Below are positions 8,037 to 64,000 of a DNA stretch of 64,000 nucleotides, one piece after another. Every line of letters starts with the position of its first letter. Position 1 is the stretch's first letter. The position numbers were made by a program, and so were the translations under genes. This DNA is from a virus (Duplodnaviria; Heunggongvirae; Uroviricota; Caudoviricetes), in the IMG/VR virus record IMGVR_UViG_3300046462_000479; one strand, given 5' to 3'. The notes beneath the pieces are model-generated. The model had not been told where the DNA came from. It saw nothing but the letters and a program-made list of their open reading frames with translations, and did not search any database.

Positions 8037-8038
8037 CA

Positions 8039-48989: not shown

Positions 48990-50024
48990 TTACGGGGACG
49001 GTGGCGTGAGGACCTGCATCCTCGACCAGGGGATCGGCCCGAGCTGACGCGCGTACGGGTAGGCGGGACTGTAGGCCGGGTTTGTGATCGGCAGCGTGAC
49101 GCCGACCGCTCCCCAGGAGGTCGCCTGGCCGCCCTGGTTGACGGCGTCGAGCGCGTAGATGGCGACGTTTGAGCCGAGGTCGCGGAGGAACATTCCGTAC
49201 TGCTGGAGCGCGTAACACATCAGCTTCTCGAGGGTCGGCAGGATGAGCGCGTCGACGTTGACGGTCGGGTCGAGGCGGAGCCAGGTTCCGAGGCCGAGGC
49301 CGGTGCCGCCGGGCGCCTGCCCGTTTGCTGGATACCGGGTCGGGCTTCCGACGTTCGCCATCGAGAACACGAGCGGATGCAGGATCGCGCCGCCCGCGAT
49401 GTCGGCGGGCGTGATCAGCCCCTCGATGAGCGGGAACCGGGCCGCGTTCGAGTTGCCGGGCGCGGGCTCCTGTACGGCTCCGGGAGCGAACGACGTGCCG
49501 CCCTGGCACGACCAGACCGATCCGTTGAAGCTGGCCTCCCAGAGGTCGGACTGGCGGCTGTGGACAGGGTCCTGGACGGTGAGGTGGTGGTCGCTGTTGT
49601 GGCCCGGCTGGGTGCCGACGGGGATGTAGACGGACGCGTCGAACGGGCCGCCGCCCGAGATGGCGTAGGCGGGCGAGCCGCCATCGGTGTCGGCGCGGGC
49701 GACGGACGCCTCGAAGTAGTAGCCGCCGCCGTTGGTGGCGAGCCATGTTGAGATCATCGCCGCCGAGTTCGGGTCTATGGCTGCCTGGGTCGCGTCCCAC
49801 GCCCACGGGCCGCTAGACGGCGGGGGCGGGACAGGCGCAGGTGCTGTCGGTGCAACCAGTTGACCGGCTTCGGCGCGTGCGGCGGCGATCAGCGTGAGCG
49901 CGTTCGCCCAATTCGTTCCCGGAGGAGGCGTCGTCCATTTCCGGTTGATGTAGCCGACCGTCGTCTGCTTCAAGGCTGCAACAGCCTGGTCGAGTTTTGC
50001 TTGAACGTCCTGCGGGGATGCCAT
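48990..50024 (-). CDS. structural-module protein, paralog of 46392..47273 (344 aa)
   Basis: See the paralog. Confidence 0.55.
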   Translation of the reverse strand: MASPQDVQAKLDQAVAALKQTTVGYINRKWTTPPPGTNWANALTLIAAARAEAGQLVAPTAPAPVPPPPSSGPWAWDATQAAIDPNSAAMISTWLATNGGGYYFEASVARADTDGGSPAYAISGGGPFDASVYIPVGTQPGHNSDHHLTVQDPVHSRQSDLWEASFNGSVWSCQGGTSFAPGAVQEPAPGNSNAARFPLIEGLITPADIAGGAILHPLVFSMANVGSPTRYPANGQAPGGTGLGLGTWLRLDPTVNVDALILPTLEKLMCYALQQYGMFLRDLGSNVAIYALDAVNQGGQATSWGAVGVTLPITNPAYSPAYPYARQLGPIPWSRMQVLTPPSP

Positions 50025-50767
50025 TACTCCTCATCTTCAGGTATCTCTGCTGTTTCTATCGCCACCTGGAAGCCGTCGGCGATCGTGAGCCCAGTCATCC
50101 ACCGGTCCTCCTTCTCCGACCAGGACGGCCACACTGTCGTGCCGACAAGATGGCCTAGCCGTGCTGCCGTGTCGACATGGATCTTGAAGCCAGCTTCGGT
50201 GGCGCGGATGCAGAAGTTGACGTCCTCGCTGATTCTTCGTCCTTGGCTGTCGCGTCCGAGTTCGAACCAGGGAGGGTCGATGGTCTCGATTACTGATCTG
50301 CGGATCAGCATCCCGGACGAGCCCGAGAACTGGACCTCGACCAGCTCGTCGGGACCGTACAGGCTGAGGTCCATGAAGTTGTCGTCGACGGTCGGGACGG
50401 GAAGGAACGGCTGCTGGCGGCGGAGGCAGAGCGGGGCAGCAATGTCGACATTGCGGGTGAGGAGCTGCACGAGTATGTCGGGCCGGAACGAGTGGTCATC
50501 GTCGATGAACCAGATCCATTCGCCGTGGATCTCCGCACATGCCTGATTGCGCAGCTCGGAGATGTCGGAACCGATCTTCGGCTTGACAACCGACCCGGCG
50601 GGGATCTGGAGTCCCATCAGGTTTAGCCAGAAGAGGGTGTAGCGGGCCGCCTCGTTGGCGAGCATGACGACGGTTCCAGGCTGGTTCTCCGGCTGGTTCA
50701 TCAGCACAGCCATCTCTTCCAATTGGTCGATCCTCATCAGCGTCCTTTCATGCGTGCATGTCGGCAA
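50024..50767 (-). CDS. putative GT-A-fold glycosyltransferase (DxD: WIWFIDDDH)
   Basis: DxD motif and EDVNFCI; paralogous to 50748..51440. Confidence 0.55.
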   Translation of the reverse strand: MPTCTHERTLMRIDQLEEMAVLMNQPENQPGTVVMLANEAARYTLFWLNLMGLQIPAGSVVKPKIGSDISELRNQACAEIHGEWIWFIDDDHSFRPDILVQLLTRNVDIAAPLCLRRQQPFLPVPTVDDNFMDLSLYGPDELVEVQFSGSSGMLIRRSVIETIDPPWFELGRDSQGRRISEDVNFCIRATEAGFKIHVDTAARLGHLVGTTVWPSWSEKEDRWMTGLTIADGFQVAIETAEIPEDEE

Positions 50768-51440
50768 AAACCCAGCCTGACTTGGGAGGAATCGTGAGCT
50801 GGTAGCCGCCCATCATCGAGAACCCGTAGGTCCAGCCGTCAGGCTCACGGACAGGCCAGACGCAGGACGTGCAGGAATGTCCGAGATACGCGTCCAGGTC
50901 ACACCAGATCCGGAGCCCGGCTTCGCGCGCCTTGATGCAGAAGTTCACGTCCTCTCCTACCCGGTTAGTGATGCCGGTCCCCGTCTCGAACCATGGTTCC
51001 GGAATGTCGTCCAGAACGCTCAGACGGATCAGCAGACCGGCGGCACCGGAAGCGGCCAGCTCGACCAGGCCTCCGTCCGGGTAGTCGTCCAGGTTCAGGC
51101 GGGCCGTCTCGCCGTCTCCTATGTCGATCCAGTTGACGGGACGGTAGGGCGGGTTCCGCATCAGACAGAGCGGGATAACGATGTCGAGGTCGTGGGCGAG
51201 CAGCTTCCGCAGCAGATCAGGAGACCAGACATGGTCGTCTCCCATCAGCCACACCCATTCCTTGCCTCTGTCCAGCGCCTCCTGCAGGAGCGCGTTCTGG
51301 CCGTCAGCGAGGTCCCAGCCGTACCTGAACTTCGTCTCCCACCCGTCCGGCATGTCCGTCTCCGCAAGCGACCCGGCAAAGGTGCTGAAGCGTGCGGACT
51401 CTTGCGCGATCACTCCGATCAGGCCGCCTGCAGGATGCAC
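50748..51440 (-). CDS. putative GT-A-fold glycosyltransferase (WVWLMGDDH)
   Basis: Paralog of the preceding gene. Confidence 0.55.
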   Translation of the reverse strand: MHPAGGLIGVIAQESARFSTFAGSLAETDMPDGWETKFRYGWDLADGQNALLQEALDRGKEWVWLMGDDHVWSPDLLRKLLAHDLDIVIPLCLMRNPPYRPVNWIDIGDGETARLNLDDYPDGGLVELAASGAAGLLIRLSVLDDIPEPWFETGTGITNRVGEDVNFCIKAREAGLRIWCDLDAYLGHSCTSCVWPVREPDGWTYGFSMMGGYQLTIPPKSGWVFADMHA

Positions 51441-51916
51441 GTCAGCCCCCCTTCGCTCAGGTCTCCGTGGACTCGTTCCATCCGCTCGGGGATATCGCTG
51501 TCAAAGAACTCGTAGCCGTAGTCGTGGATGACGGCGAGGCTGCCAACGTCGAGATACGGAGCAAACGTCGCAATCTCCCTAGGCTTATCGGGACCGTCGC
51601 AATGAAGAATTACGGGCGACAGATCAAAATCTCTAACGACATAGGGGATATTCTTCCAAATATCCATCTGGTTAAAGTATCCAGCAAGCCAATCTATCTC
51701 CGGGTCGGCAATGTCGTAGGTCTGAAAGATCATGTTTCTATGCCACGCCTGATCGGAAAGATAGAGAGCGAAGCCGCCGATTCCAGTCCCGAGTTCGATG
51801 ATCTGTTCGACCTCGGGGTGGAGGTTGAGGAGTTTCTCCCAGACGAGGTAGTCGTGCCACCACTGGTGCGCCTCAACGCCGCAGTAGCTGGTGGTCATCT
51901 CCTGGACGGAGATCAC
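51419..51916 (-). CDS. class I SAM-dependent methyltransferase-like (TylF/CmcI-like) protein
   Basis: IIELGTGIGGFALYL motif I; VILHCDG. Confidence 0.5.
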   Translation of the reverse strand: MISVQEMTTSYCGVEAHQWWHDYLVWEKLLNLHPEVEQIIELGTGIGGFALYLSDQAWHRNMIFQTYDIADPEIDWLAGYFNQMDIWKNIPYVVRDFDLSPVILHCDGPDKPREIATFAPYLDVGSLAVIHDYGYEFFDSDIPERMERVHGDLSEGGLTCILQAA

Positions 51917-52152
51917 TTGATCTGTTGCAGCAAGAGCGGGTACGGACCCCTGGCTTTAAGCCTGCCGTCGATCACATACTCGACCTCGTCTAGCGTGCCC
52001 CCGACACCGTTCGCTGTTGGGGGGTCCCACCAGTCCAGCAGCTTGCCTTCCGGGAGAGTGGCCGCAGCCACAATGGGGCTTCCTCCCAGGCAGCGGATCA
52101 CATGCTCGTGGGAGACCTTCTTCGGTTTGCTTGTGCGTTGCCTTGCCATCAT
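51913..52152 (-). CDS. hypothetical protein (79 aa)
   Basis: Internal ATG; ATGA overlap. Confidence 0.4.
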   Translation of the reverse strand: MMARQRTSKPKKVSHEHVIRCLGGSPIVAAATLPEGKLLDWWDPPTANGVGGTLDEVEYVIDGRLKARGPYPLLLQQIK

Positions 52153-52481
52153 TTCTCCTTCGGGATAGGCGGTCCGCTGTAGTCCCACCACAGCCGTTCG
52201 CCTTGGTGGCTGACTTCGAACATCCAGTCGATCCCGTGCTGGTTGGCACGCCGGACGATGTCTGCCAGACAAGAGCCGTCCCGCTGTCGGCCCGGACAGT
52301 CCACAGGACAATCGCAACCAATCTGCATGGTCCTGATACAAGGAGACGGCATCGCCTTGGACTCAACAGGAATCTCGTATCCGTCTTCGTCGACTGGCAG
52401 CTCCACGTCCCGGACGATCTGGCGGCGGCCGGTAAGACCGGCACCCATGATTTCTGGTATCTCGCTCATGGACGGCAGCAT
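52149..52481 (-). CDS. Cys-rich hypothetical protein (110 aa)
   Basis: ORF track. Confidence 0.45.
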   Translation of the reverse strand: MLPSMSEIPEIMGAGLTGRRQIVRDVELPVDEDGYEIPVESKAMPSPCIRTMQIGCDCPVDCPGRQRDGSCLADIVRRANQHGIDWMFEVSHQGERLWWDYSGPPIPKEK

Positions 52482-52549
52482 ACGCCTCCTTAACGACAGA
52501 GGGCCCCCGAAGGGGCCCTCTGAGGTAGCCAGTTCAACCGAGATCTATC

Positions 52550-53074
52550 TTAGACCTCGACCGTGATACCGACGTAGCAGTTGACCGCAGCGCCCGCCGT
52601 GGTGCGATGGCGGAGGAACCCGGCCTGCACGATCTCCGGCTCGCGCCCGAGCGGATACTGGATGTAGATACCAGACGTGGGCGGAACGAAGTGCGTTGAC
52701 AGGTTGCGGACCGTGCCTGTCGGCGTAACCTCCGTCGCCCCGGTACCGAACCCGGAAGCGTTCGAGGCCAGCGAGAACATCGAGCCCGTCGACTGAGACG
52801 ACGCGTTCGGGTCGTTCGCCGGTGCGATGTCCGCGGACGCGTATGTCGTCAGCGTCGTCTGCGGCGCCGTGGTGTTGGCGATCAGCTCAACCGTGATCGG
52901 CGTCGCTGCCGCGGAGCCGTTGAACTCCGTCCACCATTCCACGACACGGTAGGTCCAGCCTGCCGTGGTGAGCAACTGCATCATCGTCTTGATCGCCGTG
53001 CCTGTCGTGATCGACACCGCTGCTGCCGCACCCGGCACCGCTCCGTTCATGATCGTGTAAGTCTTCGCAGCCAT
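52550..53074 (-). CDS. hypothetical virion protein (174 aa)
   Basis: ORF track. Confidence 0.5.
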   Translation of the reverse strand: MAAKTYTIMNGAVPGAAAAVSITTGTAIKTMMQLLTTAGWTYRVVEWWTEFNGSAAATPITVELIANTTAPQTTLTTYASADIAPANDPNASSQSTGSMFSLASNASGFGTGATEVTPTGTVRNLSTHFVPPTSGIYIQYPLGREPEIVQAGFLRHRTTAGAAVNCYVGITVEV

Positions 53075-53090
53075 TTCTCACTCCCTTCGC

Positions 53091-53309
53091 TTACTGCCGG
53101 GGCTGGTTCAGCAGAACCACGCCTTTTTCTTCTGAGTGGTACATGCGGTGATGTTGTTTCATCAGTAAACCCATCTGTCTGCGCGGGCCCATCGCGTGGT
53201 AGCCGCACAGTTCACAGTCGACAACCATGTCTCCGTCAGCGTCGAACGGGCTCCTATACGTCTCCTTGTTGAAGCTGGGAAGACGGGGAGCAACCACAAT
53301 CTGGCTCAT
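53091..53309 (-). CDS. C2H2-like Zn-finger small protein (72 aa)
   Basis: CELCGYH...HHRMYH. Confidence 0.4.
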   Translation of the reverse strand: MSQIVVAPRLPSFNKETYRSPFDADGDMVVDCELCGYHAMGPRRQMGLLMKQHHRMYHSEEKGVVLLNQPRQ

Positions 53310-53611
53310 CAGGATCCCGACGCCAGGAAGGAAACGTTTGATCCGGTCGATGCCACGATCCCGTAGATCGCCTCGTCCAGATGGAGCAGGATCTGCAAGG
53401 TCGTGGACGCAGCCATCGGATACCCGTTGGCCGTTGTCACGCCTTGCGGGCCGAGGAACACGGTCGCTCCTGAGCTGTTGGACAAGAAGATGCTCCTGTT
53501 CGGGTTCTGATACCCGCCCTGCGACTGGCCATAGGTCGGGTTCGGGGCTGGGACGATCTGTTTCCCTCCCACCGTGGTATCGACCGCAACCGTTCCGGAC
53601 GTGAGTGCCAC
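53309..53611 (-). CDS. hypothetical protein (100 aa)
   Basis: ORF track. Confidence 0.45.
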   Translation of the reverse strand: MALTSGTVAVDTTVGGKQIVPAPNPTYGQSQGGYQNPNRSIFLSNSSGATVFLGPQGVTTANGYPMAASTTLQILLHLDEAIYGIVASTGSNVSFLASGS

Positions 53612-53899
53612 TTATGCGCCACCCATTGCCGTCCACACCGCGTTACCGGCAGTACCGGCAGTCGTGCAACGGTAGAAATAGGTGGTCTCACCAGCAGCAT
53701 CCGTTTTGATGTACAGGTCGTTTACGTTGCCGCCGATCGTCGGCAGCCCCGCACCGGCGCTGAGCGTGCAGCCGTTCAGCCGGATCGGCGAAGAGAACGC
53801 GTTCGTGGTGCCGGTGTTCGCGTCCGTGTAGAAATCCATTCCCATCGCCTGGTTTGGGTACTGATCGCCAGGCGGTCCCTCGTCAGCGACATTGCTCAT
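53612..53899 (-). CDS. hypothetical protein (95 aa)
   Basis: SD GGAGGGTGACATG. Confidence 0.5.
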   Translation of the reverse strand: MSNVADEGPPGDQYPNQAMGMDFYTDANTGTTNAFSSPIRLNGCTLSAGAGLPTIGGNVNDLYIKTDAAGETTYFYRCTTAGTAGNAVWTAMGGA

Positions 53900-53900
53900 G

Positions 53901-54371
53901 TCACCCTCCTAACGCGGCCTCTGCCGCCGTTGCCGCGTCTTCGCCGCGTACCCGCGACCCGTCACTCAGCGTGTACCAGCCACCCCCTGTGTGTTCCGGG
54001 AAGGAGTGTGACATGTCACCCTGGTCTTCCTCTTCTTCGGCTTCTGGTTCGTCCTCGCTTACGGGCTGGACGGCATCCCGTTCCACTCCCTCGTAGTTCA
54101 GGTAGGAGTGGGTCGGGTCAGACAGGCCGTGCCCTGTTGGGGCAGCCGGATCAGGCAGCTGCCCCACGCTGGGCCAGTCTTCGCCGTCGTCTGGGACGTT
54201 GATGGCCATCATGGCGGCCTTCCCGAGTTCCACCAGATTGTCGGCCGCGCGTCCCCACTCGCCCGCAGGGATGACATCCCCAGGCTCGTAATCCACGATT
54301 AGACCAGAACCGATCGGATGTTCGGCCTTGATGGGCTTAACCGCGACGTAGGAGAAGACGATGTGAGGCAT
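53901..54371 (-). CDS. acidic hypothetical head-module protein (156 aa), containing an internal palindrome
   Basis: ORF track. Confidence 0.5.
   Translation of the reverse strand: MPHIVFSYVAVKPIKAEHPIGSGLIVDYEPGDVIPAGEWGRAADNLVELGKAAMMAINVPDDGEDWPSVGQLPDPAAPTGHGLSDPTHSYLNYEGVERDAVQPVSEDEPEAEEEEDQGDMSHSFPEHTGGGWYTLSDGSRVRGEDAATAAEAALGG
54006..54021. repeat. palindrome variant GTGTGACATGTCACCC inside a CDS; its central ATG is in frame
   Basis: Two mismatches. Confidence 0.8.
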
Positions 54372-55364
54372 TTACGCAGACACCGCCGTGTGGAAGTAGG
54401 CGCCGAGATCGGCGCCGACGATCTTGACAGCGAAGGCAAGCTCGCCCTCGATGCGGATCGTGCCGATGCCAAGCCACGGCATCGGGATCTGACTGATCCT
54501 GCTTCCGAACGCGCCCGCACCCAGAAGGCCTACCCAGGTGAAGATGTATCCGGCCGACGGAACCATGATCCCCGGCTGCGGCTCCGCGTAGAGCAGCAGC
54601 GCGTCCAGGGTCGGAGCGATGAACGCGAAGCTGTCAGCGCCACCCTGGTTGCCGTTGTTGATGATCGCGGCAGCAACGAGCACCTGGAAGTTGTCCACGC
54701 CAGGCGGAGCGATCAGCGACGCGAGCAGATCGGTCGTAACCACACCACGCTGGGTGTACTTGATGCGCTGCACGATCTCGTCGTGGTTCTTCAAGACCTC
54801 CCACACGCGCGGCCCCAACACGAACTTGTTCGGGAACTTGCCTGTGTTCTGCTTGATCGACCACACCTGCGCCTCGATGTCTTCCAGCGGCGTCGAGTTG
54901 GCCAGGTTCCACTGCGGCGACGGAACAATGTCCGCCCCGGTCGTGGAACCAGTCCACGTGGACACCGCCAGAATCGTTGCCTGAACCAGAACCTCTCTGG
55001 CCAGCAGCATCCGGTGCGTAATCCACAGCGTCGCGTCACGGTCGGCGTTCAGCGGCACATCGGAGTTGGCCCGGATCTGCGGGTCGACGTCCTTGTGGAA
55101 CGCGTAGAGCGGAGCGTAATACGACGGAGTGTTGTCCAGGTTGTATCCGCCACCGACCGACTCGGTCGACGGGGCACGGACCTGTGCTTCGTTCCGGAAC
55201 CAGTCGCCCTTCGTGTACACGAAGTACCTGTCGGACTGCTTCTGTACCGGCACGACAGGGAACACCTTGTCGGCGATGTAGTCCGAAGAGTCCTGCATGT
55301 ACGCCTGGCTGATGTTCGTCAGCGGGCGGTTAACGTGTACTTGGGCAAGATATGGCTCAGCCAT
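54372..55364 (-). CDS. major capsid protein (330 aa)
   Basis: Position after the scaffold; size; capsid-like composition. Confidence 0.6.
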   Translation of the reverse strand: MAEPYLAQVHVNRPLTNISQAYMQDSSDYIADKVFPVVPVQKQSDRYFVYTKGDWFRNEAQVRAPSTESVGGGYNLDNTPSYYAPLYAFHKDVDPQIRANSDVPLNADRDATLWITHRMLLAREVLVQATILAVSTWTGSTTGADIVPSPQWNLANSTPLEDIEAQVWSIKQNTGKFPNKFVLGPRVWEVLKNHDEIVQRIKYTQRGVVTTDLLASLIAPPGVDNFQVLVAAAIINNGNQGGADSFAFIAPTLDALLLYAEPQPGIMVPSAGYIFTWVGLLGAGAFGSRISQIPMPWLGIGTIRIEGELAFAVKIVGADLGAYFHTAVSA

Positions 55365-55385
55365 TTGCTGGTCTCACCCCTTCCC

Positions 55386-55820
55386 TTAGTCGCCCGCCGC
55401 AACCAGCCCGGAAGGCTGGAACAGCATCGAAGAAATGATTCCCGTGGACCCGGCTTCCATTGCCACGCCGAGGACCTGGGTTCCAGACACGGTGTACGGG
55501 GTACCCGTGAACACCGTTGCGCCTGTGTACTTGACTGCGCGGCCGGACGAGTCGGAGGAGAGCAGATCTCCTGCGTTGAACGATCCGCCGCACAGCACCT
55601 TGCTTGGCCCGCCAGTCCTGACCTGGCAGCCGATCGGGATCGCCGTCGTGCCGACCGGAGCGTCCTGCAGGACACCGAGTGCCCTCTGCCCGGTCGCGCA
55701 AGTGGCGATCATCCCGGTCGATGCCAGCTGGATGAACTTGAACTGGTTTGACGCCATCGTCGTGTTACACGTGAAGGTGAAATCCCAGCCTACGTTGGTG
55801 CCGAAAGCAGGTCCAGCCAC
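55386..55820 (-). CDS. putative head decoration protein (144 aa)
   Basis: Lies between the scaffold and the capsid gene. Confidence 0.4.
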   Translation of the reverse strand: MAGPAFGTNVGWDFTFTCNTTMASNQFKFIQLASTGMIATCATGQRALGVLQDAPVGTTAIPIGCQVRTGGPSKVLCGGSFNAGDLLSSDSSGRAVKYTGATVFTGTPYTVSGTQVLGVAMEAGSTGIISSMLFQPSGLVAAGD

Positions 55821-57008
55821 TTATGCCACCCCCCCGTTGCCAGCACCGTAGTGGTACTCCTCGGCCTGGTAACGCTCGTACAGGCGGGCACCCTCGGCGG
55901 TCTTAAGGACCCGGTCGAGCGCCTGCTCCTGCGACAGCTCGCCTGACTTCTCGACCAGGTCGGATGCCATCTTCTCGATCTGCGCCCACGGGCCTTCCTT
56001 GGTCTCGCCGTCGTTCAGTGACGCGCGTCCCATCTCCGTGAACAAGCCGCCCTTGGCGACTCTTTCCTCGGCACCGCTGAGAAGCGCTTCCAGCTTCTCG
56101 AACGTCTCCGGATCGAACTTCTCTGACGCCTCTTTCAGGATCGGAGCGAGGTCGTCGGTCGGAGCGACATGCGAGTAGGAGGCGGCCTTCTGGATCATGT
56201 CGCGGTGACGGAGATCGTCCTGCGACTTGGCCAGCTCCTCCCTCGTCTCTGCCAGCTCACTCTCTGTCTTGTCCGCCTTCGAGATGATCTCCTCGAAGAA
56301 CGGTCGGCTCTCAACAGGGACGCCAGAGAGGTCCCACGTCCCGTCTTCCTTGCGAACCGGCACCTGGACTTCCACTGTGCCCCCTTCGTTGGTTTCTACT
56401 TCGTTTGCCACATCGCCGCTATCGGAATCTGTCTCAGCTTTGCTGAACGGCTTCGCCTTGCGGCCGCCGAACGGCAGCTTCTTTTTCTTCTTGCCCTTAC
56501 TGTCGTCAGCGTCGTCGTCTGGCTCCGCGTCGTTCCCGTCGGAATCTTGGGCGACTTTCGGGGCGGACGCCGTTCCTTCCAGATCGGTGCCGGAACCGGA
56601 ACCGTCCTTGTCGGCCCCGGACGCGGACCCGTACGAGTCGTCCTCGTCGGCGTCTTCGTCGCCGAACAGCTCGGTGGGAGACTTCACCGACGTCGAGTTC
56701 AGCTTCGGGTTGTTACGGCCGTACAGTTCGGTGCCGAGCTTCTCTACCAGCTCGGGAGAAAACTCCCCCTCCACGCCTTTGAGTAGGCGTACGGCAGCGA
56801 CAACGGCCCGCTCGACGGTCTCGTCCATGATCCCGTCCTTGCGGATCTCATCAAGCAGGGCGCCTTCTCGCTCCCAGGGGACTTCGAGAATGTCGTCAAG
56901 CTCGCTGTCCAACTGGTCATCCCCTTTCAGCAGCAGAAAGCGCCGCTTATTCGCGGCGCGGCGGACGACAGAAACCTCGTCCCCATCTACTCCTCCGAGA
57001 AACCTCAC
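55821..57008 (-). CDS. scaffolding-like protein (acidic, coiled coil, 395 aa)
   Basis: Asp/Glu-rich low-complexity segments; position. Confidence 0.5.
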   Translation of the reverse strand: MRFLGGVDGDEVSVVRRAANKRRFLLLKGDDQLDSELDDILEVPWEREGALLDEIRKDGIMDETVERAVVAAVRLLKGVEGEFSPELVEKLGTELYGRNNPKLNSTSVKSPTELFGDEDADEDDSYGSASGADKDGSGSGTDLEGTASAPKVAQDSDGNDAEPDDDADDSKGKKKKKLPFGGRKAKPFSKAETDSDSGDVANEVETNEGGTVEVQVPVRKEDGTWDLSGVPVESRPFFEEIISKADKTESELAETREELAKSQDDLRHRDMIQKAASYSHVAPTDDLAPILKEASEKFDPETFEKLEALLSGAEERVAKGGLFTEMGRASLNDGETKEGPWAQIEKMASDLVEKSGELSQEQALDRVLKTAEGARLYERYQAEEYHYGAGNGGVA

Positions 57009-57026
57009 GTGCAGCGGTATCGGAAG

Positions 57027-59231
57027 CTACCGGCCGACCATCCAATCCTGCGGCTCCTGCCGCATATATCCGGTTTCGGATTGGGGGATCTGCATGTCGC
57101 GGCGGATGCCGGTGCCGCCGATGGACAGGCCCGTGTATTTGCCGTCCAGGACGTCCTGCCACACGGCCGGGTCTTCGCAGTGCAACACCATCACCCAGGT
57201 GCCCTTCTTCACCATCTCTGTGCCGTCGTAGGTGAAATCGGTGGGGGCAATGAACGACTCGACCGGGACTAGGCTTGGCTTGTTCGTTTTGAAGAATCCG
57301 GGGCGTGCGTGCTGCAGCTTCGACACCGACGCTTTCCCCTTGGCCACGTTCTTCATGTACTTGTGGGCGGCCGACTCGACCTCCTGCGGGATCATCCAGT
57401 CGTCCTGGCTGTCCAGGGCGTTTGGTTCCAGTACGACGCCGTAGATCAGCTGCCGGTGCTTGTCCGCCTTCTGTACCTGGTATTTCAGGCGCCGGTTGGC
57501 GTACATGATCGAGATGTTCTTCAGGGGGACATTGACGTGAACGTCTGAGATGGTGGGGCCGGAAACGGCTGCCATCGCGCCAGCCTCGCCCTGCCCTTCC
57601 AGTCCGGCGGCAGCGTCGCCTACGTCGTTGGAGGGGGGAGCGTCTCCGGCCGGACCTTCGGCGAAGTCTTTGCCGAGCATATCTCCGCCGATGATGTCCA
57701 GCACCTCGTTCCACGAATGGGGCGGCATTTCGGTGTAGTGGCTGACCACGTTCGGGTTGGTCCACTGCACGTTCCGGTTGGCGTCCTGCATGAAGTCGTT
57801 GGCCTGCACTTTCAGGCATTCTCCTTTGCGGGCCCGATGCTTGGTCGGGTTGGTGCGGCCGATGTAGTGGCCGTCGCGGGTGATCATCCGGTAGCTGTAG
57901 CCGCCGTCGGGTGTGCGGCTCATCCCGTGCACACGCAGGTTCAGTGTGGCCGGACGTGCCTGCGCTTTCTTCACCTCGAACGCCTTCTTCGCTTTCAGCT
58001 TGCCGCCTTTGAAGTCGATCTCTAGGATGGTGCCGGGACCGATCTCGTCGGCCTGGATCGCTCTGGTGTCGACTTTGCTGCGGTAGCCGTGGCCACCCAG
58101 CCAGCCTTCGGCCAGCTCGATGTTGCGGCTGTGGGTGATCAGCGCGACCGTGTGGCCTTGGTCGACCATCTTCAACAGCTTCTCCAACGCTGGGATGAAC
58201 CGCTTCTGGTAGGCGTTGAAGGATTCGCCGCCGTCGACGGGCTTGTCGGGATGGTCGTCCATGAACGGCTTCAGTTTCGGGATCACGTCCGCGGACGAGT
58301 GGCCTGCGAACGAGCCGAGGTTCCAGGGCCGGTAGGCGTTGTCTGACTTGACCGGGGCCCCGCAGATACGGCTGGCGATCTTCGAGGTCTGCTCGGCCCG
58401 TGTCAGCGTCGAGCTGTAGATCGTCTCCACTCCCGCGTTCTTCAAGAACTTGCCGAGGTTGCGGGCCTGTACGCGGCCTTGCGCGTCCAGCGGGATGTCG
58501 CGCCAGCCTTGCACGATGTCGTGCGGCGCTCCCGGCTTGTTGTAGCGGGTCTTCGCGTGCGAGACCAGGAACAGTTTCCCTGGCGTCGTTTTCATGGTCG
58601 GCTCGATCGCTTCCCCGAACTCGCGCAGCTTGTCACGCAGCCGGGCGGGAGGGTCTTCGGAGTGGCGTTCCTCCTGCACGTACAACGGGTCATGCTTGTC
58701 GATCCGTCCTTCCCAGCGGTCACAGACGTAGCCTTGGTCGACCTGGACGTTGTCGAACATTTCGCAGCGTCCGGCCGTGAAGAAGTCGCAGTTGCCGCAA
58801 TCTTCGTCTGCGTCGTCTGAGGGACGGTAGTGCGCCCAGCCGGGGATGCCGCTCTTCTTCACGGACTCGGCCAGCTCCTGCTTCTCCCATTCCTTTACGT
58901 CGCGGAGCGTCATCACGCCGCCGTTCGCTTCCACTTTCTCCCGGATGTTGGCGTGTTCCGGCTCAGCCAGACCGTCCAGCCAGTAGGACAGCTCCTGGTC
59001 GACAGGGTCGTGGCCGTACTTGTCGTTGCATTCGGACCGCAGGTCGGGATGGGCGGCCCAGAAGCGGCGTAGCTCCTGTTTGGCGTCCTCTTCGATGGCG
59101 CTGACGTTGGCGCAGTCTTTGTCGACGGTGTGGGGAAGCTTGCCTTTGTTGTCGAAATGATGGCGCTTCACCCAGTCGTGTCCAAAGCGGGCGTTCAGGT
59201 ACTCGCGCTGTTGTTGGCTACGGGCAGGCAT
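57027..59231 (-). CDS. prohead protease (HK97/S78-like C-terminal domain) fused to a degenerate histidine-phosphatase (PGAM/SixA-like) domain and a Cys-rich N-terminus (734 aa)
   Basis: C-terminus DSQDDWMIPQEV...LQHA...GLSIGG (His and Ser); middle QGWRDIPLDAQGRVQARNLGKFL...TIYSSTLTRAEQT...ALITHS. Confidence 0.7.
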   Translation of the reverse strand: MPARSQQQREYLNARFGHDWVKRHHFDNKGKLPHTVDKDCANVSAIEEDAKQELRRFWAAHPDLRSECNDKYGHDPVDQELSYWLDGLAEPEHANIREKVEANGGVMTLRDVKEWEKQELAESVKKSGIPGWAHYRPSDDADEDCGNCDFFTAGRCEMFDNVQVDQGYVCDRWEGRIDKHDPLYVQEERHSEDPPARLRDKLREFGEAIEPTMKTTPGKLFLVSHAKTRYNKPGAPHDIVQGWRDIPLDAQGRVQARNLGKFLKNAGVETIYSSTLTRAEQTSKIASRICGAPVKSDNAYRPWNLGSFAGHSSADVIPKLKPFMDDHPDKPVDGGESFNAYQKRFIPALEKLLKMVDQGHTVALITHSRNIELAEGWLGGHGYRSKVDTRAIQADEIGPGTILEIDFKGGKLKAKKAFEVKKAQARPATLNLRVHGMSRTPDGGYSYRMITRDGHYIGRTNPTKHRARKGECLKVQANDFMQDANRNVQWTNPNVVSHYTEMPPHSWNEVLDIIGGDMLGKDFAEGPAGDAPPSNDVGDAAAGLEGQGEAGAMAAVSGPTISDVHVNVPLKNISIMYANRRLKYQVQKADKHRQLIYGVVLEPNALDSQDDWMIPQEVESAAHKYMKNVAKGKASVSKLQHARPGFFKTNKPSLVPVESFIAPTDFTYDGTEMVKKGTWVMVLHCEDPAVWQDVLDGKYTGLSIGGTGIRRDMQIPQSETGYMRQEPQDWMVGR

Positions 59232-59239
59232 CAGAAGGA

Positions 59240-59255
59240 GTGTGACATGTCACAC
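59240..59255. repeat. 16-bp palindrome 9 nt upstream of the protease-fusion start
   Basis: Perfect match. Confidence 0.9.
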
Positions 59256-60697
59256 TAGGATTGTTCGCTTTTCGCTCCGGAAGGCTGCGCGTCCGAGCCG
59301 GGAGGACCGGCCCCGCTCAGCTGCCGCTGGTCGAAGTCGTATTTCTCTGGGTCGTTGATGGCTGGTGCGCCCATCTGTTCGTTGATCCACGGAAGCGTCG
59401 TTTCCCAGTCGATCGGGGCGCCGGTGCGGCCGATCCGGTTGATGAAGTTGCCCAGCGTGTCCAGGTCGATCGTTTCCACCGAGCTATGACACAGCTTCGG
59501 CATCTCGTCGGTGCGGCCGTTCAGCTTCCACAGGATAGGGATGCACTGCGTGTTAAAGACGCTGCTGATGATGTCAAGGTAGGCGCCCAAAGAGGCTGCA
59601 AACAGGTCCTTTTTCGTGACCGACAGCGCGTACGAGCCGACCTTGTCTTGGCCCATCATCACCAGGTCGGCCAACACCGAGGTGGCCATACGGTTCTCGT
59701 AGCGGCCGATGATCTGGCTGGTGTCGAACTGCCGTGATCCGGCTGACGCCATCAGCTGCAGCTCCCACCCGAACGGCAGCACCACGCCTTCCTGTTCGTC
59801 GCGGCGGATCGACGACACCACCGTTTTCGCCATCTGCAACATGTTGGCCATGCTGGTGTCGGACGCATCCCAAATGTCGGTGCCTTCCGGCGGGATCAGC
59901 ACAGGCAGACCGGCCAGGTCGCGCTCGATCCCGATCGCCTCGATCTGCTGGATGTTCTTAATGAACCACCAGGAGCGGTAGGCGTTGCGGAGGATGCTGC
60001 GGCCTTCCGGGTTGTCCTTGAAGATGGTGGTGCGGAAATGGAGCGCCTTGTTGCGCGGAATGAAGCGGAGCAGATAGTCGGGCGGCGGGTTCTGGATCAT
60101 GCCGTCGATCTCTCCGAAGTCGTTGAACACCCATTTCCACAGGCTGTCCTGGGAACGCAACGGGATCTTGGCCAGCCCGATCTGCCCGTCGTTGTACAGG
60201 CTGGACATGGTCGGACTCTGGTCCCAGCCTTTCCGGACCTTGAACACCATCTCGTGGTAGCTGTAGCCGTACTGGAGGAAGCTGATGATCTCGCTGATCG
60301 AGTCGGCCCAGCTGAACGCCATGTCTTCGCGGACCTCGTCGAACCATTTGGCTCCGGGACTGTCTTTCGGTTCGCTCCACCAGGTGACGCGACGCATGAG
60401 CATGGTGATGGCGTAGAGGACGGCCCCGATGATCGGGTCCTGGTCGCCCATCTCCCGGTATACCTCTGCGGCTCGGCGGCCCTGCTGCAGCTGGGTCAGC
60501 CATTCCTCGAAGACGAAGCCGCCCCAGTGTCTGAGACCGGATCGGCCGAACTCTTCTGTCAGGTCGCTACCGCCGTAGCCGAGGTTGTATTTCGTTTGTG
60601 GGCTGGCGGCTTTGCCCAGCATTGTGCGCGGGCCGAAGTCGCCGACGATGCGGCGGCCCTCGTTGGGGTGGTGTCCGTTGGTTCCGGCGAGAATCAC
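59255..60697 (-). CDS. portal protein (480 aa)
   Basis: Size and position upstream of the protease. Confidence 0.6.
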   Translation of the reverse strand: MILAGTNGHHPNEGRRIVGDFGPRTMLGKAASPQTKYNLGYGGSDLTEEFGRSGLRHWGGFVFEEWLTQLQQGRRAAEVYREMGDQDPIIGAVLYAITMLMRRVTWWSEPKDSPGAKWFDEVREDMAFSWADSISEIISFLQYGYSYHEMVFKVRKGWDQSPTMSSLYNDGQIGLAKIPLRSQDSLWKWVFNDFGEIDGMIQNPPPDYLLRFIPRNKALHFRTTIFKDNPEGRSILRNAYRSWWFIKNIQQIEAIGIERDLAGLPVLIPPEGTDIWDASDTSMANMLQMAKTVVSSIRRDEQEGVVLPFGWELQLMASAGSRQFDTSQIIGRYENRMATSVLADLVMMGQDKVGSYALSVTKKDLFAASLGAYLDIISSVFNTQCIPILWKLNGRTDEMPKLCHSSVETIDLDTLGNFINRIGRTGAPIDWETTLPWINEQMGAPAINDPEKYDFDQRQLSGAGPPGSDAQPSGAKSEQS

Positions 60698-61023
60698 GCG
60701 CTGTGAGTATCGCCCTCCGGGCGGATGCTGGTGATCACGCGGACCAGTCCCCCGTGTTTATCGACCAGATACATGCGTTTCAGGTCGGCCGTCCAGACGA
60801 ATCTCATCGTCCGGTCGCGTTCGTTGCCGTTGCGGCGGCCGCGAACACGGTTGCGGCTGGATACCGCCCAGGACGGCTGCCGGGTCGAGTAGCGGCCCGA
60901 GTCGAGCGCCTCGTTTACTTCCTGGGCAACAAGCAGACGCAGGTAGCTGCCGGACGCCATCTCTTCCGGGAACCGCTCCCGAAACTGGTCGACGGCATGG
61001 TGGGTTACCTCAACCGGCCTCAT
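60694..61023 (-). CDS. hypothetical protein (109 aa)
   Basis: ORF track. Confidence 0.45.
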   Translation of the reverse strand: MRPVEVTHHAVDQFRERFPEEMASGSYLRLLVAQEVNEALDSGRYSTRQPSWAVSSRNRVRGRRNGNERDRTMRFVWTADLKRMYLVDKHGGLVRVITSIRPEGDTHSA

Positions 61024-62014
61024 CGAGCACGCTTTTCGCCCTCGACTGTGCCGTGCGGGCCTCCCGCACGAACGCTTCCAGCTCTTCCGGGTCTGACGTT
61101 TCTAGCGCCTGTTTGGCCCGCTCGCTCACTGTCCGCAGTTCTGCTTTCGTCATCGTTTCCAGTGGCGGCATGATCGTGAAGCACTCAATGAGCGCCTGGT
61201 TGGTCTGGGCGATGATGTCCAGGTATTCGCCCGCACGGTCGCCGACCTCGACCAGACCGTCGAATCCGTCCACGACACCGGCGAGAACGTCGAGCAGGTC
61301 GCGCAGTTCTTCTTGCGGGTCGGGCGGAACAGGCAGACATGAGGTCAGAAACGATTCCGTCTGCATGAACTTGTGAATGTCGTCGGCGTACAGTGTTTCG
61401 CTTTGGCCTTTGTCGATCACCCAGACGGACGCTTTGGTGAAGTGGTGGTCGAAGTCGTACCGGTAGAGGTCGCCGTATTGGCGGGCGACACGGATCATCT
61501 CTCTGACGCTGTAGGTGTGGTGGATGAACTCGCCTACCTGTTCGATTGTCTGGCCTTCCCAGGAGGGACGGATGAACCAGCTGACCACAACGAATTCGCG
61601 TGCCGCCCGACACAGGTTGTGGAGCGCCCTTTCTCCGTCTTCGACGTGTTCGAGCAGATGGCGGACGTAGACGATGTCGGCTGTCTCTAGTTCGTCCATG
61701 TCGAACAGGTCGACGACGTCGAAGGTCAGGTCCGGGTACTGCTCTTTGCAGTAGTTGACGAACCGAGGCGTGAAGTCGTAGCCGGTGTAGCCGATCCTGA
61801 CCGCTTCTCCCGGTTCGAAGCCTTTGATTTCGATGCCGGTGCCGCATCCAACTTCGAGGAAGCTGGACGGGCGGGCGCGGCTGACGATCAGCCGGAGGAT
61901 GCGCCTGTCGGGCGCGTCGGGTCCCTGTCCTATCCCCCAGCGGCCAAGTTCTGTTTCATCGGGCTGGCTGAGGAACGTTTCTGCGTCGAGTTTCGACCAG
62001 GGCGTGTTAGGCAT
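61010..62014 (-). CDS. class I SAM-dependent methyltransferase
   Basis: FLEVGCGTGIE motif I; DIVYVRHLLEHV. Confidence 0.7.
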   Translation of the reverse strand: MPNTPWSKLDAETFLSQPDETELGRWGIGQGPDAPDRRILRLIVSRARPSSFLEVGCGTGIEIKGFEPGEAVRIGYTGYDFTPRFVNYCKEQYPDLTFDVVDLFDMDELETADIVYVRHLLEHVEDGERALHNLCRAAREFVVVSWFIRPSWEGQTIEQVGEFIHHTYSVREMIRVARQYGDLYRYDFDHHFTKASVWVIDKGQSETLYADDIHKFMQTESFLTSCLPVPPDPQEELRDLLDVLAGVVDGFDGLVEVGDRAGEYLDIIAQTNQALIECFTIMPPLETMTKAELRTVSERAKQALETSDPEELEAFVREARTAQSRAKSVLDEAG

Positions 62015-62783
62015 GGTGTCTCCGCATCTCTGCTACCAGCTGGCCGCGGTTGGATTCGGCACGGGCGAGCATCCCTTCCGGGTTAGTGGAGTAGTGGAAC
62101 AGGACCTCGTTGACGGCGGCGAAGCGGGTGCCGCGCCGCATCAGGTCGATCCACAGGTCCCAGTCTTCGTAGCCGCCGTGGACGCCAGGCCAGCCTGCCA
62201 TGGCGGGATGGTATCCGCCGCAGTCTCTGAGGATCTGGGTGCGGAACAGGCTGCAGTAGAAGTAGCGGTTGTAGCCCCAGAGGACCTCTTCGTCGACTTC
62301 GTTGTAGGGGCGGTCGTAGCCGGGCATGTAGGTGCCGTTGCGGGTGGGCCCATGTTCTTGTAGGCCGGTGAGGACAACGTCGGCGTCTTGCAACAGGGGC
62401 AGCGTCTTCTCGATGTAGGTCTCTTCGAGCCAGTCGTCTGCGTCTAGGGGCAGGAAGGCGAGGCTGCGGGTGTTCATCAGGCCGGTGTTGCGGGCCGAGG
62501 GGAGGCCGCGGTTGTTGGTGCGGACGATCTTGACGGGCGTGATCGTGCTGAGACAGTTGACCGGTTCGAGGCTGCCGTCGTCGACGAGGATCACTTCGAC
62601 CGGCATCACGGTCTGTCTGAGCGCCGAGTCTAGGGCCCGTTGCAGCTGGCCGAGTTCGACGTTGTAGCAGGGGATGCAGACTGTCACCCCTTCTTCTAGC
62701 CGATGCAGTTTGTCCAGCGCCTGGTCGCGTTCCACGATCGTCTGGTACTGGTCGGTGCTCATAAACGCCTGGGTGATGCTCAT
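62007..62783 (-). CDS. family-2 glycosyltransferase (258 aa from the internal ATG)
   Basis: VCIPCYNVELGQLQRALDSALRQT...VILVDDGS. Confidence 0.7.
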   Translation of the reverse strand: MSITQAFMSTDQYQTIVERDQALDKLHRLEEGVTVCIPCYNVELGQLQRALDSALRQTVMPVEVILVDDGSLEPVNCLSTITPVKIVRTNNRGLPSARNTGLMNTRSLAFLPLDADDWLEETYIEKTLPLLQDADVVLTGLQEHGPTRNGTYMPGYDRPYNEVDEEVLWGYNRYFYCSLFRTQILRDCGGYHPAMAGWPGVHGGYEDWDLWIDLMRRGTRFAAVNEVLFHYSTNPEGMLARAESNRGQLVAEMRRHHA

Positions 62784-63742
62784 GTCCAACCCAGAGAGGA
62801 GAAGTTGTTGTTGTAGATCATTTCCTTCCAGTCCGGCTCGTGTACCCAGTAGTGGGTGGCGTTGAGCGGGATTGCTTTGTGCAGCCATTGCACAGATTCC
62901 ATGTGTTTGTCCTCTCCGCCGAGGCCCATCTGGTAGCCCCAGCTGACGATGAACGAGTTGATGCACAGGTCGTTGTTTTCGTTGGTGGGTGCCGCCAGCA
63001 GGGTCTGGAACGCTTGTTCTCTGTCGTCTTGGAAGTTGATCCAGAAGTCAGCCATCCATGTTCTTCCCCAGCTGCCGATGCCGGGCTGTCTGACGATGTA
63101 GATGCTGTTTTCCTCGGTCGGGTTAAAGATGTTGGAGTACCAGTCCAGGTGCATGGCGTCGAATGGGGGGCCGCAGCGTATGGTGTTCATCTGCAGCCTG
63201 CGATGTTCTGGTCCGGCCGGGAAGACATGGAAGGTGGTGTCGATCGGCCAGTGGCCGTAGGGGATCGTTCCCAGCCATTCCATCGTGTTTTTGTACAGGA
63301 GCCGGGTTTGGGTGGCGAGCACCATGCTGCGTAGCGGGTAGCCGTAGGGGATCTTGTCGTTGACGCGGGTGTGGGGCCCGACAGCACAACCGGTTTTCTT
63401 GGCTACGGCCATGTAGGCGGCAAAGGCGCGGCTGCTGGCGCCTTCGAAGCAGATGTCGGCGTCTGTGACCGCATACCAGTTGTGCGAGTCTCGGTATTGG
63501 TCTTTGAGAGCGATGTTGTAGTTGTCGGTGAGGGCGGGCATGGAGTCGACTTTTCCCAGCTGGTACACCTTTTTCACTTCTGGGAGCTGTTCGACTTTGT
63601 CGAGTAGACGCAGACAGTCGGGATGGTCGGTTCCGTTGTCGACGATGACCAGCTGGTAGAGCATCTTCATGTGCCGGAACGAGTTGATTGTCCGGGCGAG
63701 CGTGTCCAGCCGGTTGTAGGTGCCGAGGAAGACGGTCAGCAT
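62780..63742 (-). CDS. family-2 glycosyltransferase (320 aa)
   Basis: VFLGTYNRLDTLARTINS...LVIVDNGT. Confidence 0.7.
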   Translation of the reverse strand: MLTVFLGTYNRLDTLARTINSFRHMKMLYQLVIVDNGTDHPDCLRLLDKVEQLPEVKKVYQLGKVDSMPALTDNYNIALKDQYRDSHNWYAVTDADICFEGASSRAFAAYMAVAKKTGCAVGPHTRVNDKIPYGYPLRSMVLATQTRLLYKNTMEWLGTIPYGHWPIDTTFHVFPAGPEHRRLQMNTIRCGPPFDAMHLDWYSNIFNPTEENSIYIVRQPGIGSWGRTWMADFWINFQDDREQAFQTLLAAPTNENNDLCINSFIVSWGYQMGLGGEDKHMESVQWLHKAIPLNATHYWVHEPDWKEMIYNNNFSSLGWT

Positions 63743-63960
63743 TAGAGCGTGTCTAGCATCCTCGATAGCAGCATGTCGCGGCCGTCCTGGTCTGGAACGT
63801 CTTTCCAGTGGCTGGCGTTGGTGAAGTGGATCCAGTCGCCCAGCTTTTCGATCCCCCAGGATTGGAGGCCGTGTTCGTCGGGTTCGCGGACGGGCATGTA
63901 GCCGTGCTCGACCGTCCAGAGCAGCTGCCAGTCTTCTTCGCTGAACAGCGGCCAGTTCAT
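63742..63960 (-). CDS. hypothetical protein (72 aa or longer; the frame stays open to the window edge)
   Basis: ORF track. Confidence 0.4.
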   Translation of the reverse strand: MNWPLFSEEDWQLLWTVEHGYMPVREPDEHGLQSWGIEKLGDWIHFTNASHWKDVPDQDGRDMLLSRMLDTL

Positions 63961-64000
63961 GCTGCCGCAGTCTCCGTCGTCGCGTTTGTGTTCGCCGCGG

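Follow-up and report, generated by a model that had tools for sequence, protein, structure and literature searches.

The DNA analysed here (hereafter the window) is a stretch of 64,000 nucleotides from a lytic siphovirus of ~77 kb known only from metagenomes. At positions 61010-63742 the earlier note had placed two family-2 glycosyltransferase genes and one SAM-dependent methyltransferase gene; these genes, named GT-B, GT-A, and MT1, exist there on the minus strand, and their profile matches and sequence motifs agree (Table 1). GC3 varied between 0.75 and 0.80 in the three genes and dN/dS against the closest relative between 0.14 and 0.18, as compared with 0.13 for the portal gene. This GC3, together with the portal-like dN/dS, indicated that they are not chance open reading frames, and all three are under purifying selection.

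GT-A is the canonical member of the pair and matched PF00535 far above the cut-off (E=5.6e-22, 78.9 bits vs. 23.3), with the motifs YN...VDDGS and LDADD, the latter at residues 112-116. Translation almost certainly begins with the ATG at 62783, which forms an ATGA overlap with the stop codon of GT-B, and not at the naive ORF start at 62966; the same 258-aa protein was predicted by gene callers on identical contigs. The closest PDB sequence matches were chondroitin synthase K4CP (1e-14) and GalT1. There were 688 homologs, and among the best 120 of them many were located on contigs of 60-80 kb. GT-B is more divergent (25.7 bits against PF00535, over the 23.3 cut-off of Pfam) and ends in a helical domain (about residues 225-320) that is specific to the clade. 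Its DxD motif is D94-A-D96, with D96 invariant across 57 sequences. By both fold and sequence its nearest viral relatives are giant-virus proteins, and its catalytic domain has cellular homologs in many bacterial genomes; a tblastn search against phages gave no match. Both proteins display a single Rossmann-like nucleotide-sugar domain, the GT-A fold of family 2, and on their sequences they are predicted family-2 glycosyltransferases with intact DxD motifs. Their fold matches were generic, comprising enzymes whose substrates range from polysaccharides and teichoic acid (TarP) to lipid carriers and peptides (SunS), and TarP appeared among the matches of both.

MT1 matched Methyltransf_11 with 42 bits (cut-off 21.2; E=1.5e-10) and is a predicted class I SAM-dependent methyltransferase. 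Its core (about residues 30-235) is followed by a long helical C-terminal hairpin, and the glycines G56, G58, and G60 of the SAM-binding GxGxG signature, within the motif LEVGCGTG, are invariant in 18 homologs. The AF2 model (pLDDT 82.6) presented a Rossmann-type methyltransferase core with the seven-strand fold, whose Foldseek neighbours ChlM, NodS, TylM1, and DesVI (E about 1e-7 to 1e-8) are small-molecule or sugar methyltransferases; MT1 has no DNA-methylase features. Neither observation is diagnostic of the substrate class (sugar hydroxyl, protein, or nucleic acid). In the NCBIfam search no match to any of the enzymes reached the cut-off, including at equivalog level.

Table 1. Position of the genes and sequence features considered in this work (window coordinates).
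Feature	Coordinates	Strand	Description
C5-cytosine DNA methylase	412-1104		DNA methylase gene
Tail tube protein	37915-38325	-	phrog_1407 5e-13, Phage_tail_2 1.4e-4; candidate acceptor
GT-D	50024-50767	-	GT2-like glycosyltransferase
GT-C	50748-51440	-	GT2-like glycosyltransferase, paralog of GT-D
MT2	51419-51916	-	Small putative class I methyltransferase; opens the second module
Major capsid protein	54372-55364	-	phrog_1005 3.5e-70; candidate acceptor
p144	55386-55820	-	Head decoration/head fibre protein; candidate acceptor
Palindrome	59240-59255	.	16 bp, GTGTGACATGTCACAC; just after the portal gene
Portal gene	59255-60697	-	Portal_Mu 2.2e-26, phrog_113 4.5e-72; downstream boundary of the island
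p109	60694-61023	-	Conserved small protein between MT1 and portal, 109 aa
MT1	61010-62014	-	Class I SAM-dependent methyltransferase (predicted), 334 aa
GT-A	62007-62783	-	Canonical family-2 glycosyltransferase (predicted), 258 aa
GT-B	62780-63742	-	Divergent family-2 (GT-A fold) glycosyltransferase (predicted), 320 aa
p235 (C-terminal 85 codons)	63742-64000	-	235-aa putative GT-A-like glycosyltransferase, cut by the window end

Extent and conservation of the island

The three enzymes were described in the earlier note as lying directly upstream of the portal gene. A conserved small gene, p109, intervenes, sharing 14 nt with MT1 and 4 nt with the portal gene; it occupies the same position in seven relatives (dN/dS 0.14), and searches of Pfam, PHROG, and NCBIfam gave no match for its product. 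At the other end, an apparent 72-aa ORF (63742-63960) corresponded to the C-terminal end of p235, whose gene is cut by the window edge; the module therefore extends off the window. A contig 100% identical to window positions 51010-64000 (L031) continues past position 64000 and contains the full p235 gene at 7566-8273. The part of p235 within the window is 82% identical to the C-terminus encoded at 2129-2836 of a related contig (L003). The motifs LIDNS and FLDHD, and a suggestive hhalign probability of 64% with the N-terminal half of GT-B including its DxD motif, point to p235 as a probable GT-A-like glycosyltransferase.

On L031 the gene order is TerL, p175, p211, p70, p73, p267, p54, p82, p295, MT24, GT6, p235, GT-B, GT-A, MT1, p109, and portal. 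The enzymes covered by the earlier note are thus the final three of an island that spans roughly 9 kb and comprises 15 genes, which encode at least three firm and two probable glycosyltransferases, two methyltransferases, and eight proteins without assignable function. The presumed location between terminase and portal was seen on this contig and on eight others. Co-transcription with the portal gene, as the earlier note held, is likewise supported: 14 consecutive genes overlap by 1-25 nt, the overlaps running from p211 through the portal gene, and no terminator-like site occurs on the same strand. The glycosyltransferase and methyltransferase genes are therefore embedded in the virion structural operon downstream of the terminase, an arrangement known from mycobacteriophage Corndog.

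Across the island, dN/dS varied from 0.11 to 0.46. The GT6 product is 25-30% identical to the GT6 glycosyltransferases of cyanomyoviruses (e.g., P-SSM2), whose genes are found in large myoviruses and not beside the portal gene, in contrast with the portal-side position here; neither GT-A nor GT6 exceeded 32% identity to any sequenced phage. MT24 weakly matched a rhamnosyl O-methyltransferase, and p211 gave a GT-A-like hhalign signal of 86%, which is suggestive. No such signal was obtained by hhalign for p175, p267, and p295, and PDB profile searches with p235 and p295 gave no match. None of the island enzymes had a membrane-spanning segment (maximum 19-residue hydropathy <1.4 in all), p73 contains a hydrophobic helix, and profile searches detected no flippase, polymerase, or priming transferase.

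All relatives whose sequence reached far enough upstream carried the island at this location; they are metagenomic contigs with 57-86% portal identity, and the gene content of the island differed between them. The genome closes as a circular map of ~77 kb; no integrase or lysogeny module was present in the window or in the rest of it, and no tRNAs were found. It also encodes ParB-like proteins, Ku, and an AAA ATPase, and contains a dispersed intergenic palindrome; a second copy of the 16-bp palindrome GTGTGACATGTCACAC is located off-window, upstream of the terminase gene. A megablast search of the 59-64 kb region against 50,697 phage records gave no match. The nearest cultured relatives are the Arthrobacter phages Kovu and Ottawa. 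Their similarity to the portal and capsid genes, along with an Rpf-like domain (E=0.04), provides sub-threshold hints of an actinobacterial host.

Second module and candidate acceptors

A second glycosyltransferase/methyltransferase module at 50-52 kb, to which the earlier note had pointed as a parallel, proved real, its members being supported to variable extents. GT-D scored over the Pfam cut-offs (Glyco_tranf_2_3, 33 bits vs. 27; PF00535, 24.6 bits vs. 23.3) and displayed the motifs FIDDDH and EDVNFC. GT-C gave weak matches to Anp1 and Glyco_tranf_2_3 and fell below the PF00535 cut-off; it is a paralog of GT-D (38% identity, 2e-46; hhalign 100%). MT2, which overlaps GT-C by 22 nt, displayed an ELGTGIGG motif and gave only a weak Methyltransf_23 match, under the cut-off (E=0.004).

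Three structural proteins are candidate acceptors of a glycan. The p144 gene lies between the scaffold and capsid genes, and its product resembles the "head fiber protein" of Kovu (32% identity), weakly matches Phage_cement_2 (E=0.065), and contains 21.5% Ser+Thr, a proportion that is not diagnostic. The other two are the major capsid protein, which is 98% identical in L003, and the tail tube protein. No Ser/Thr-rich tail was found at the C-termini of these two, which neither proves nor excludes modification.

Discussion

The closest precedent for the arrangement is Corndog, a cluster O mycobacteriophage with an O-methyltransferase and three glycosyltransferases (gp35-gp38) in its head operon (PMC4351075). 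In mycobacteriophages, phage-encoded enzymes add glycans to capsid and tail tube subunits (Freeman 2023, as presented in PMC11600133, PMC12363180, and PMC12619734), reportedly at the C-termini. Corndog (gp35-38, considered together with Che8 gp108-110) resembles the phage studied here in having a methyltransferase and several glycosyltransferase genes in the structural operon beside the portal and in the absence of an integrase; the Corndog genome also shares Ku, an AAA ATPase, ParB-like proteins, a C5 DNA methylase, and a dispersed intergenic palindrome (PMC4351075). In Corndog, however, four genes follow the portal and none encodes a GT6 enzyme, whereas here about 15 genes precede it, GT6 among them, and a second module is present. 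None of the six enzymes encoded in the window gave a significant BLASTP match to Corndog gp35-38 or Che8 gp107-110. A hit of p109 to Che8 gp107 (24 bits; E=0.002, with 16 sequences in the database) was not meaningful. Kinship with cluster O was discarded as well: terminase, portal, and capsid genes showed no similarity to those of Corndog, so that the traits common to both phages (Ku, AAA ATPase, palindromes, head-operon transferases) are analogous rather than inherited. Virion glycosylation is proven in the Corndog/Che8 system, whereas here it is a prediction from the genes.

Another system with the same order of activities is A064R of PBCV-1, an enzyme with two rhamnosyltransferase domains and a 2-O-methyltransferase domain that acts on the capsid glycan (PMC7826918). 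As in our phage, the order is GT, GT, MT, and the activities are soluble, virus-encoded, and unaccompanied by lipid-carrier machinery (PMC7826918). A064R is nevertheless one fused protein, in contrast with the three separate genes, bacterial host, and candidate acceptors of the present case, and no homology has been demonstrated.

We consider glycosylation of virion proteins the best reading of the island, with about even confidence, because of the precedent of Corndog and Che8, the late-operon coupling, the solubility of the enzymes, and the lack of genes for DNA hypermodification, lipid carriers, or lysogeny. The placement of the genes inside the head operon, from which the earlier note had argued for a virion-protein target, is by itself a weak argument, since in Kovu and Ottawa, its closest relatives in culture, the matching terminase-portal and portal-capsid gaps are occupied by unrelated DNA/RNA enzymes (SSB, RNA ligase, nucleases). 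The dissimilarity of the enzymes to those of Corndog and Che8, their generic fold matches, the candidate acceptors, none of which has a diagnostic feature, and the eight island genes without assignable function would also speak against a virion target. On balance, the most likely role of the island is to cover the particle with a methylated glycan chain. The three genes would then encode the final enzymes of a glycan-building island, expressed late and situated between the large terminase and the portal, in which soluble GT6, p235, GT-B, GT-A, and probably p211 would use host nucleotide-sugars in the cytoplasm. An oligosaccharide may thus be assembled stepwise, with a structural protein of the phage (p144, the major capsid protein, or the tail tube protein) as its direct acceptor, with MT24 and MT1 O-methylating sugars of the chain, and MT2, GT-C, and GT-D either extending the same glycan or making a second one. 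We infer the acceptor, the sugars, and the order of action, as well as any benefit, which might consist in shielding or stabilising the particle.

A more ambitious version of this proposal seems to us possible but doubtful. The genes could constitute a self-contained, lipid-carrier-free system of protein glycosylation with at least 7-9 transferases, including some whose folds are not yet known as those of glycosyltransferases (p295, p267, and p175), that would equip the head (decoration protein or capsid), and possibly the tail, with a complex, methylated heteroglycan varying between strains like an O-antigen. Such a system would be the most elaborate known in any bacteriophage, would have evolved independently of that of mycobacteriophages while converging on the capsid glycosylation of giant viruses, and would belong to a widespread, soil-type clade.

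Classic conversion of the host surface is a prophage trait. The island might nonetheless modify a host glycoconjugate during infection (a cell-wall polysaccharide, a teichoic-acid-like polymer, a glycolipid, or a lipid-linked precursor), which could block superinfection by destroying the receptor or help with lysis and release. The best relatives of GT-A by sequence and fold (K4CP, heparosan synthase, TarP, and DPMS) have polysaccharides, teichoic acid, or lipid carriers as their targets; its database annotation is "glycosyltransferase involved in cell wall biosynthesis", EpsD, TuaG, and PgaC are weak neighbours of it in NCBIfam, and both the bacterial homologs of the GT-B catalytic domain and the helix of p73 would fit an envelope target. 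TarP of Staphylococcus prophages, a neighbour in fold and sequence, and GtrABC share the GT2/GT-A fold with the enzymes described here. Such systems, however, are characterised by a temperate phage with an integrase, a membrane-bound transferase, and a flippase, whereas this phage has no integrase or lysogeny module, no GtrA-type flippase, polymerase, or priming transferase was found, and its enzymes lack membrane segments. Moreover, the island is coupled with terminase and portal late in infection and is core to the clade, not accessory, so that we regard a host target as rather unlikely.

C5 methylase and ParB-like genes, both encoded in this genome, often accompany DNA-glycosylation pathways. 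The enzymes might accordingly glycosylate the phage DNA and methylate its sugars against restriction, in the style of the pathways that combine a C5-methyltransferase, a TET-type dioxygenase, and glycosyltransferases. Known DNA glycosyltransferases include GT-A-fold enzymes, arranged in series as here, whose best PDB match is TarP, also found among the matches of GT-B and GT-A, and some lie near terminase genes (bioRxiv 10.1101/2023.12.21.572611). Those clusters carry a hydroxymethylating or oxidising enzyme, whereas the search of the closed ~77-kb genome for TET/5mYOX or thymidylate-synthase-like hydroxymethylases was negative, within the limits of Pfam sensitivity, and the 314-aa neighbour of the C5 methylase turned out to be an Ala/Lys-rich helical protein and not a dioxygenase. 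Intact pathways are usually clustered (bioRxiv 10.1101/2023.12.21.572611), but here the C5 methylase lies 6.8 kb upstream of the terminase on the circular map, about 9 kb from the first island glycosyltransferase and separated from the island by an opposite-strand gene block. MT1, besides, has no DNA-methylase features. All these checks being negative, the idea of a DNA target was set aside as very improbable. Least probable of the readings weighed is that the island makes a free or peptide-linked, glycosylated and methylated product unrelated to the virion, like a SunS-type glycocin or the mycofactocin of MftF/MftM, or that it is cargo parked in a permissive gap. Matches to such pathways were all sub-threshold, and genes for a precursor peptide, a radical-SAM enzyme, or a transporter were not seen; clade-wide conservation and tight translational coupling speak against dispensable cargo.

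To our knowledge, virion glycosylation encoded by phages is a recent finding, confined so far to a few mycobacteriophages, in which it alters antibody recognition. Compared with that system, the island appears, from its sequences, to be an unrelated and much larger set of enzymes that is fixed in a clade, and the homologs of its transferases in metagenomes number in the dozens to hundreds. If the target were DNA or the host envelope instead of the virion, such genes would be hard-wired into a packaging/portal operon in an unusual manner. If the particle is glycosylated, glycan coats would be an ecologically common trait of phages and not a mycobacteriophage curiosity, with a bearing on how stable particles are, how they adsorb and are recognised by hosts and predators, and how phages can be engineered, and the island would be a source of new soluble glycosyltransferases, sugar methyltransferases, and several candidate new transferase families.

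Results

The window covers a phage genome (GC ~61%) with early genes on the plus strand (1-28.6 kb) and a long structural operon on the minus strand (28.65-64 kb). The three minus-strand genes reported previously at 61010-63742, two family-2 glycosyltransferases (GT-B and GT-A) and the methyltransferase MT1, were all present, together with the motifs named in the earlier note (YN...VDDGS, VIVDNGT, and LEVGCGTG). GT-A was a textbook GT2 enzyme (E=5.6e-22), whose true start, an ATG at 62783 overlapping the GT-B stop codon, gave 258 aa, the length also called on identical contigs. The predicted structure of MT1, whose exact sequence also occurred on other public contigs, displayed a core like those of small-molecule and sugar methyltransferases (NodS, TylM1, DesVI) and a long helical hairpin at its end. 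As compared to the closest relative (contig L003; 80-86% nucleotide identity), the three genes had dN/dS values of 0.17, 0.14, and 0.18 vs. 0.13 for the portal and 0.06 for the capsid; these values mark the three genes as functional.

Contig L031 was 100% identical to window positions 51010-64000 and extended 8 kb beyond, with the terminase at the far end of the island (the ~9-kb, 15-gene stretch from p175 to p109), as had been presumed for a terminase lying off-window. This terminase was 50-85% identical to the gene of a relative, which matched phrog_2 at 8e-36. The module was not directly upstream of the portal as proposed, since p109 intervenes, and the naive 72-aa ORF at 63742-63960 was the tail of p235, cut at the window edge. 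Fourteen genes from p211 to the portal overlapped one another by 1-25 nt and no same-strand terminator-like site was found among them; both observations support the suggested co-transcription with the portal, and the stretch forms one translationally coupled late unit of ~9.5 kb. The three reported enzymes are real but represent only the last three enzymes of this unit. The parallel module at 50-52 kb (MT2, GT-C, and GT-D) was also found, its genes likewise overlapping; counted with the island, roughly 10 transferase genes would be given over to such chemistry by the phage.

Location of features in the window and in contig L031 (for L031 genes, order from terminase to portal; p, gene named by aa length)
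Feature	Location	Strand	Remarks
Large terminase	L031, 1		490 aa; weak Terminase_3 match
p175	L031, 2
p211	L031, 3		GT2-like; hhalign 86% vs. GT-A family
p70	L031, 4
p73	L031, 5		one hydrophobic helix
p267	L031, 6
p54	L031, 7
p82	L031, 8
p295	L031, 9
MT24	L031, 10		methyltransferase above Pfam cut-off; weak rhamnosyl O-methyltransferase match
GT6	L031, 11		E=2.6e-21
p235	L031, 12		LIDNS and FLDHD motifs; hhalign 64% vs. GT-B
GT-B	L031, 13; window 62780-63742	-
GT-A	L031, 14; window 62007-62783	-
MT1	L031, 15; window 61010-62014	-	class I SAM methyltransferase, 334 aa
p109	L031, 16; window 60694-61023		conserved; no assigned function
Portal	L031, 17; window 59255-60697
Prohead protease	window 57027-59231	-	734-aa fusion
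Repeat protein	window 40953-45494	-	1513 aa; very basic, arginine-rich
Paralogous proteins	window 48990-50024, 46392-47336		common motif DHHLTV.DP.HSR
C5 cytosine DNA methylase	window 412-1104	-	small
Ku homolog	window 9043-9912	+	E=1.2e-22
YpsA SLOG-domain protein	window 13759-14301	+	circularly permuted; E=1.1e-18; among early genes
SPFH/Band-7 membrane protein	window 15486-16412	+	E=1.4e-29; among early genes
ParB-like DUF6551 protein	window 22218-23105	+
Secreted protein	window 23210-23620	+	136 aa; Rpf-like transglycosylase motif (PF06737, E=0.04, sub-threshold)
AAA ATPase	window 24344-25834	+
Palindrome GTGTGACATGTCACAC	window 232-27445 (about 25 sites), 38591-38606, 54006-54021, 59240-59255
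Palindrome GTGTGACATGTCACAC	L031 115-130, 837-852, 4328-4343
Haem peroxidase	L004 1099-2928		609 aa; animal-haem-peroxidase family (PF03098); directly upstream of L004 terminase

Relatives were gathered via GT-B and, independently, via the portal protein. The island lay between terminase and portal in every contig with enough upstream sequence. In the nine distinct contigs with both flanking genes this gap measured 7.2-14 kb, and p175, p211, p267, p295, GT6, p235, and GT-A were kept throughout; GT-B was absent from two contigs, the MT1 type was restricted to close relatives, and one relative carried an HNH gene and encoded a GT92 enzyme and two further methyltransferases in addition. Constant position and flanks around a mosaic interior resemble surface-glycan loci. 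GT-A had 688 homologs, and the location of many among the top 120 listed on 60-80 kb contigs suggests an abundant clade. No part of the island occurred in sequenced phage isolates. Closest among these were the Arthrobacter phages Kovu and Ottawa, with identities of 41-43% for the portal and 38-43% for the capsid; p144, a head decoration or fibre candidate, was 32% identical to the Kovu "head fiber protein". The nearest viral relatives of the GT-B catalytic domain were giant viruses of eukaryotes (22-31% identity, Foldseek E=9e-10; MAG contigs L020-L030 and BFVD E3T524 from Cafeteria roenbergensis virus), and further relatives appeared in scattered bacterial and archaeal genomes.

The N-terminus of the prohead protease was Cys-rich; residues 220-374 formed a histidine phosphatase domain (His_Phos_1) and residues 585-708 an S78/XkdF protease domain. 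The N-terminal passenger enzyme varied among relatives, being a 2',5'-RNA-ligase-like 2H phosphoesterase in L001 and missing in L004; this variation suggests swappable enzyme cargo directed to the capsid, perhaps for injection to counter host defence. The 1513-aa protein, with ~45-aa repeats (judged by eye) containing RTRPRPT and no Pfam or PHROG match, sits with the paralogous pair in a high-GC block within 40-50 kb (0.65-0.67 vs. 0.60-0.62 elsewhere), flanked by head-completion genes on one side and tail genes on the other, and adjoining the second module.

The perfect 16-bp palindrome GTGTGACATGTCACAC occurred ~28 times (~1 expected by chance), and its 11-mer core gave 54 strand matches (1.1 expected). 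Copies were nearly all intergenic or at early-region gene starts, where they generated spurious MTCHT N-termini in naive ORFs, and they lay on both sides of the terminase-to-portal unit. The palindrome recalls the 17-bp palindromic repeat known from cluster O mycobacteriophages and probably serves as an operator or other regulatory site. Ku, AAA ATPase, ParB-like protein, and C5 methylase form the same unusual set as in phage Corndog, whose structural genes are, however, unrelated to those of the window. No DNA polymerase was detected in the ~77-kb genome. The Rpf-like motif and the Arthrobacter-phage-like portal and capsid genes hint at a possible actinobacterial host.

Discussion

No sequence feature names the acceptor of these enzymes, and we give virion proteins about an even chance of being the target. 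The earlier note had argued for them from the position in the head operon, a weak argument since the same gaps in Kovu and Ottawa accept cargo unrelated to the virion (SSB and hypothetical genes between terminase and portal, and from portal to capsid an RNA ligase plus nucleases). Predicted expression with terminase and portal, the core status of the island in the clade, and the findings given below against a lipid-linked glycan, lysogenic conversion, and DNA hypermodification count in favor of virion proteins; against them, no homology to proven virion-glycosylating enzymes and no obvious acceptor feature in capsid and tail tube proteins were found, and fold neighbours cover every acceptor class. 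A host envelope glycoconjugate is an unlikely acceptor: the enzymes are soluble and no flippase, polymerase, or priming transferase was found, which disfavours a lipid-linked, exported glycan, and lysogenic conversion is disfavoured by the lack of an integrase in the genome, which closes at ~77.4 kb when overlapping public contigs are joined. Phage DNA seems highly improbable, given that no thymidylate-synthase-like or TET-like enzyme of the kind expected for sugar hypermodification was found in this closed genome; the neighbour of the C5 methylase, considered as a dioxygenase, proved to be an Ala/Lys-rich helical protein. Another product, or mere cargo, we consider about as improbable, with the remaining probability left unassigned.

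Virion proteins as target have direct precedent, since Corndog carries an O-methyltransferase and three glycosyltransferases within its head operon (PMC4351075), capsid and tail tube subunits of mycobacteriophages are described as carrying glycans (Freeman 2023, as cited in PMC11600133, PMC12363180, and PMC12619734), and PBCV-1 A064R presents a GT-GT-MT layout with the capsid glycan as substrate (PMC7826918). The island looks functionally like the cluster O arrangement and giant-virus capsid glycosylation, but falls outside both enzyme families. It is best classed with the glycan-modifying cassettes of phage head operons, a kind already known, from which it is set apart by its size, by the presence of GT6 along with several proteins of no assignable function, by a second module, and by its fixation in an uncultured clade. 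The system is unusually elaborate.
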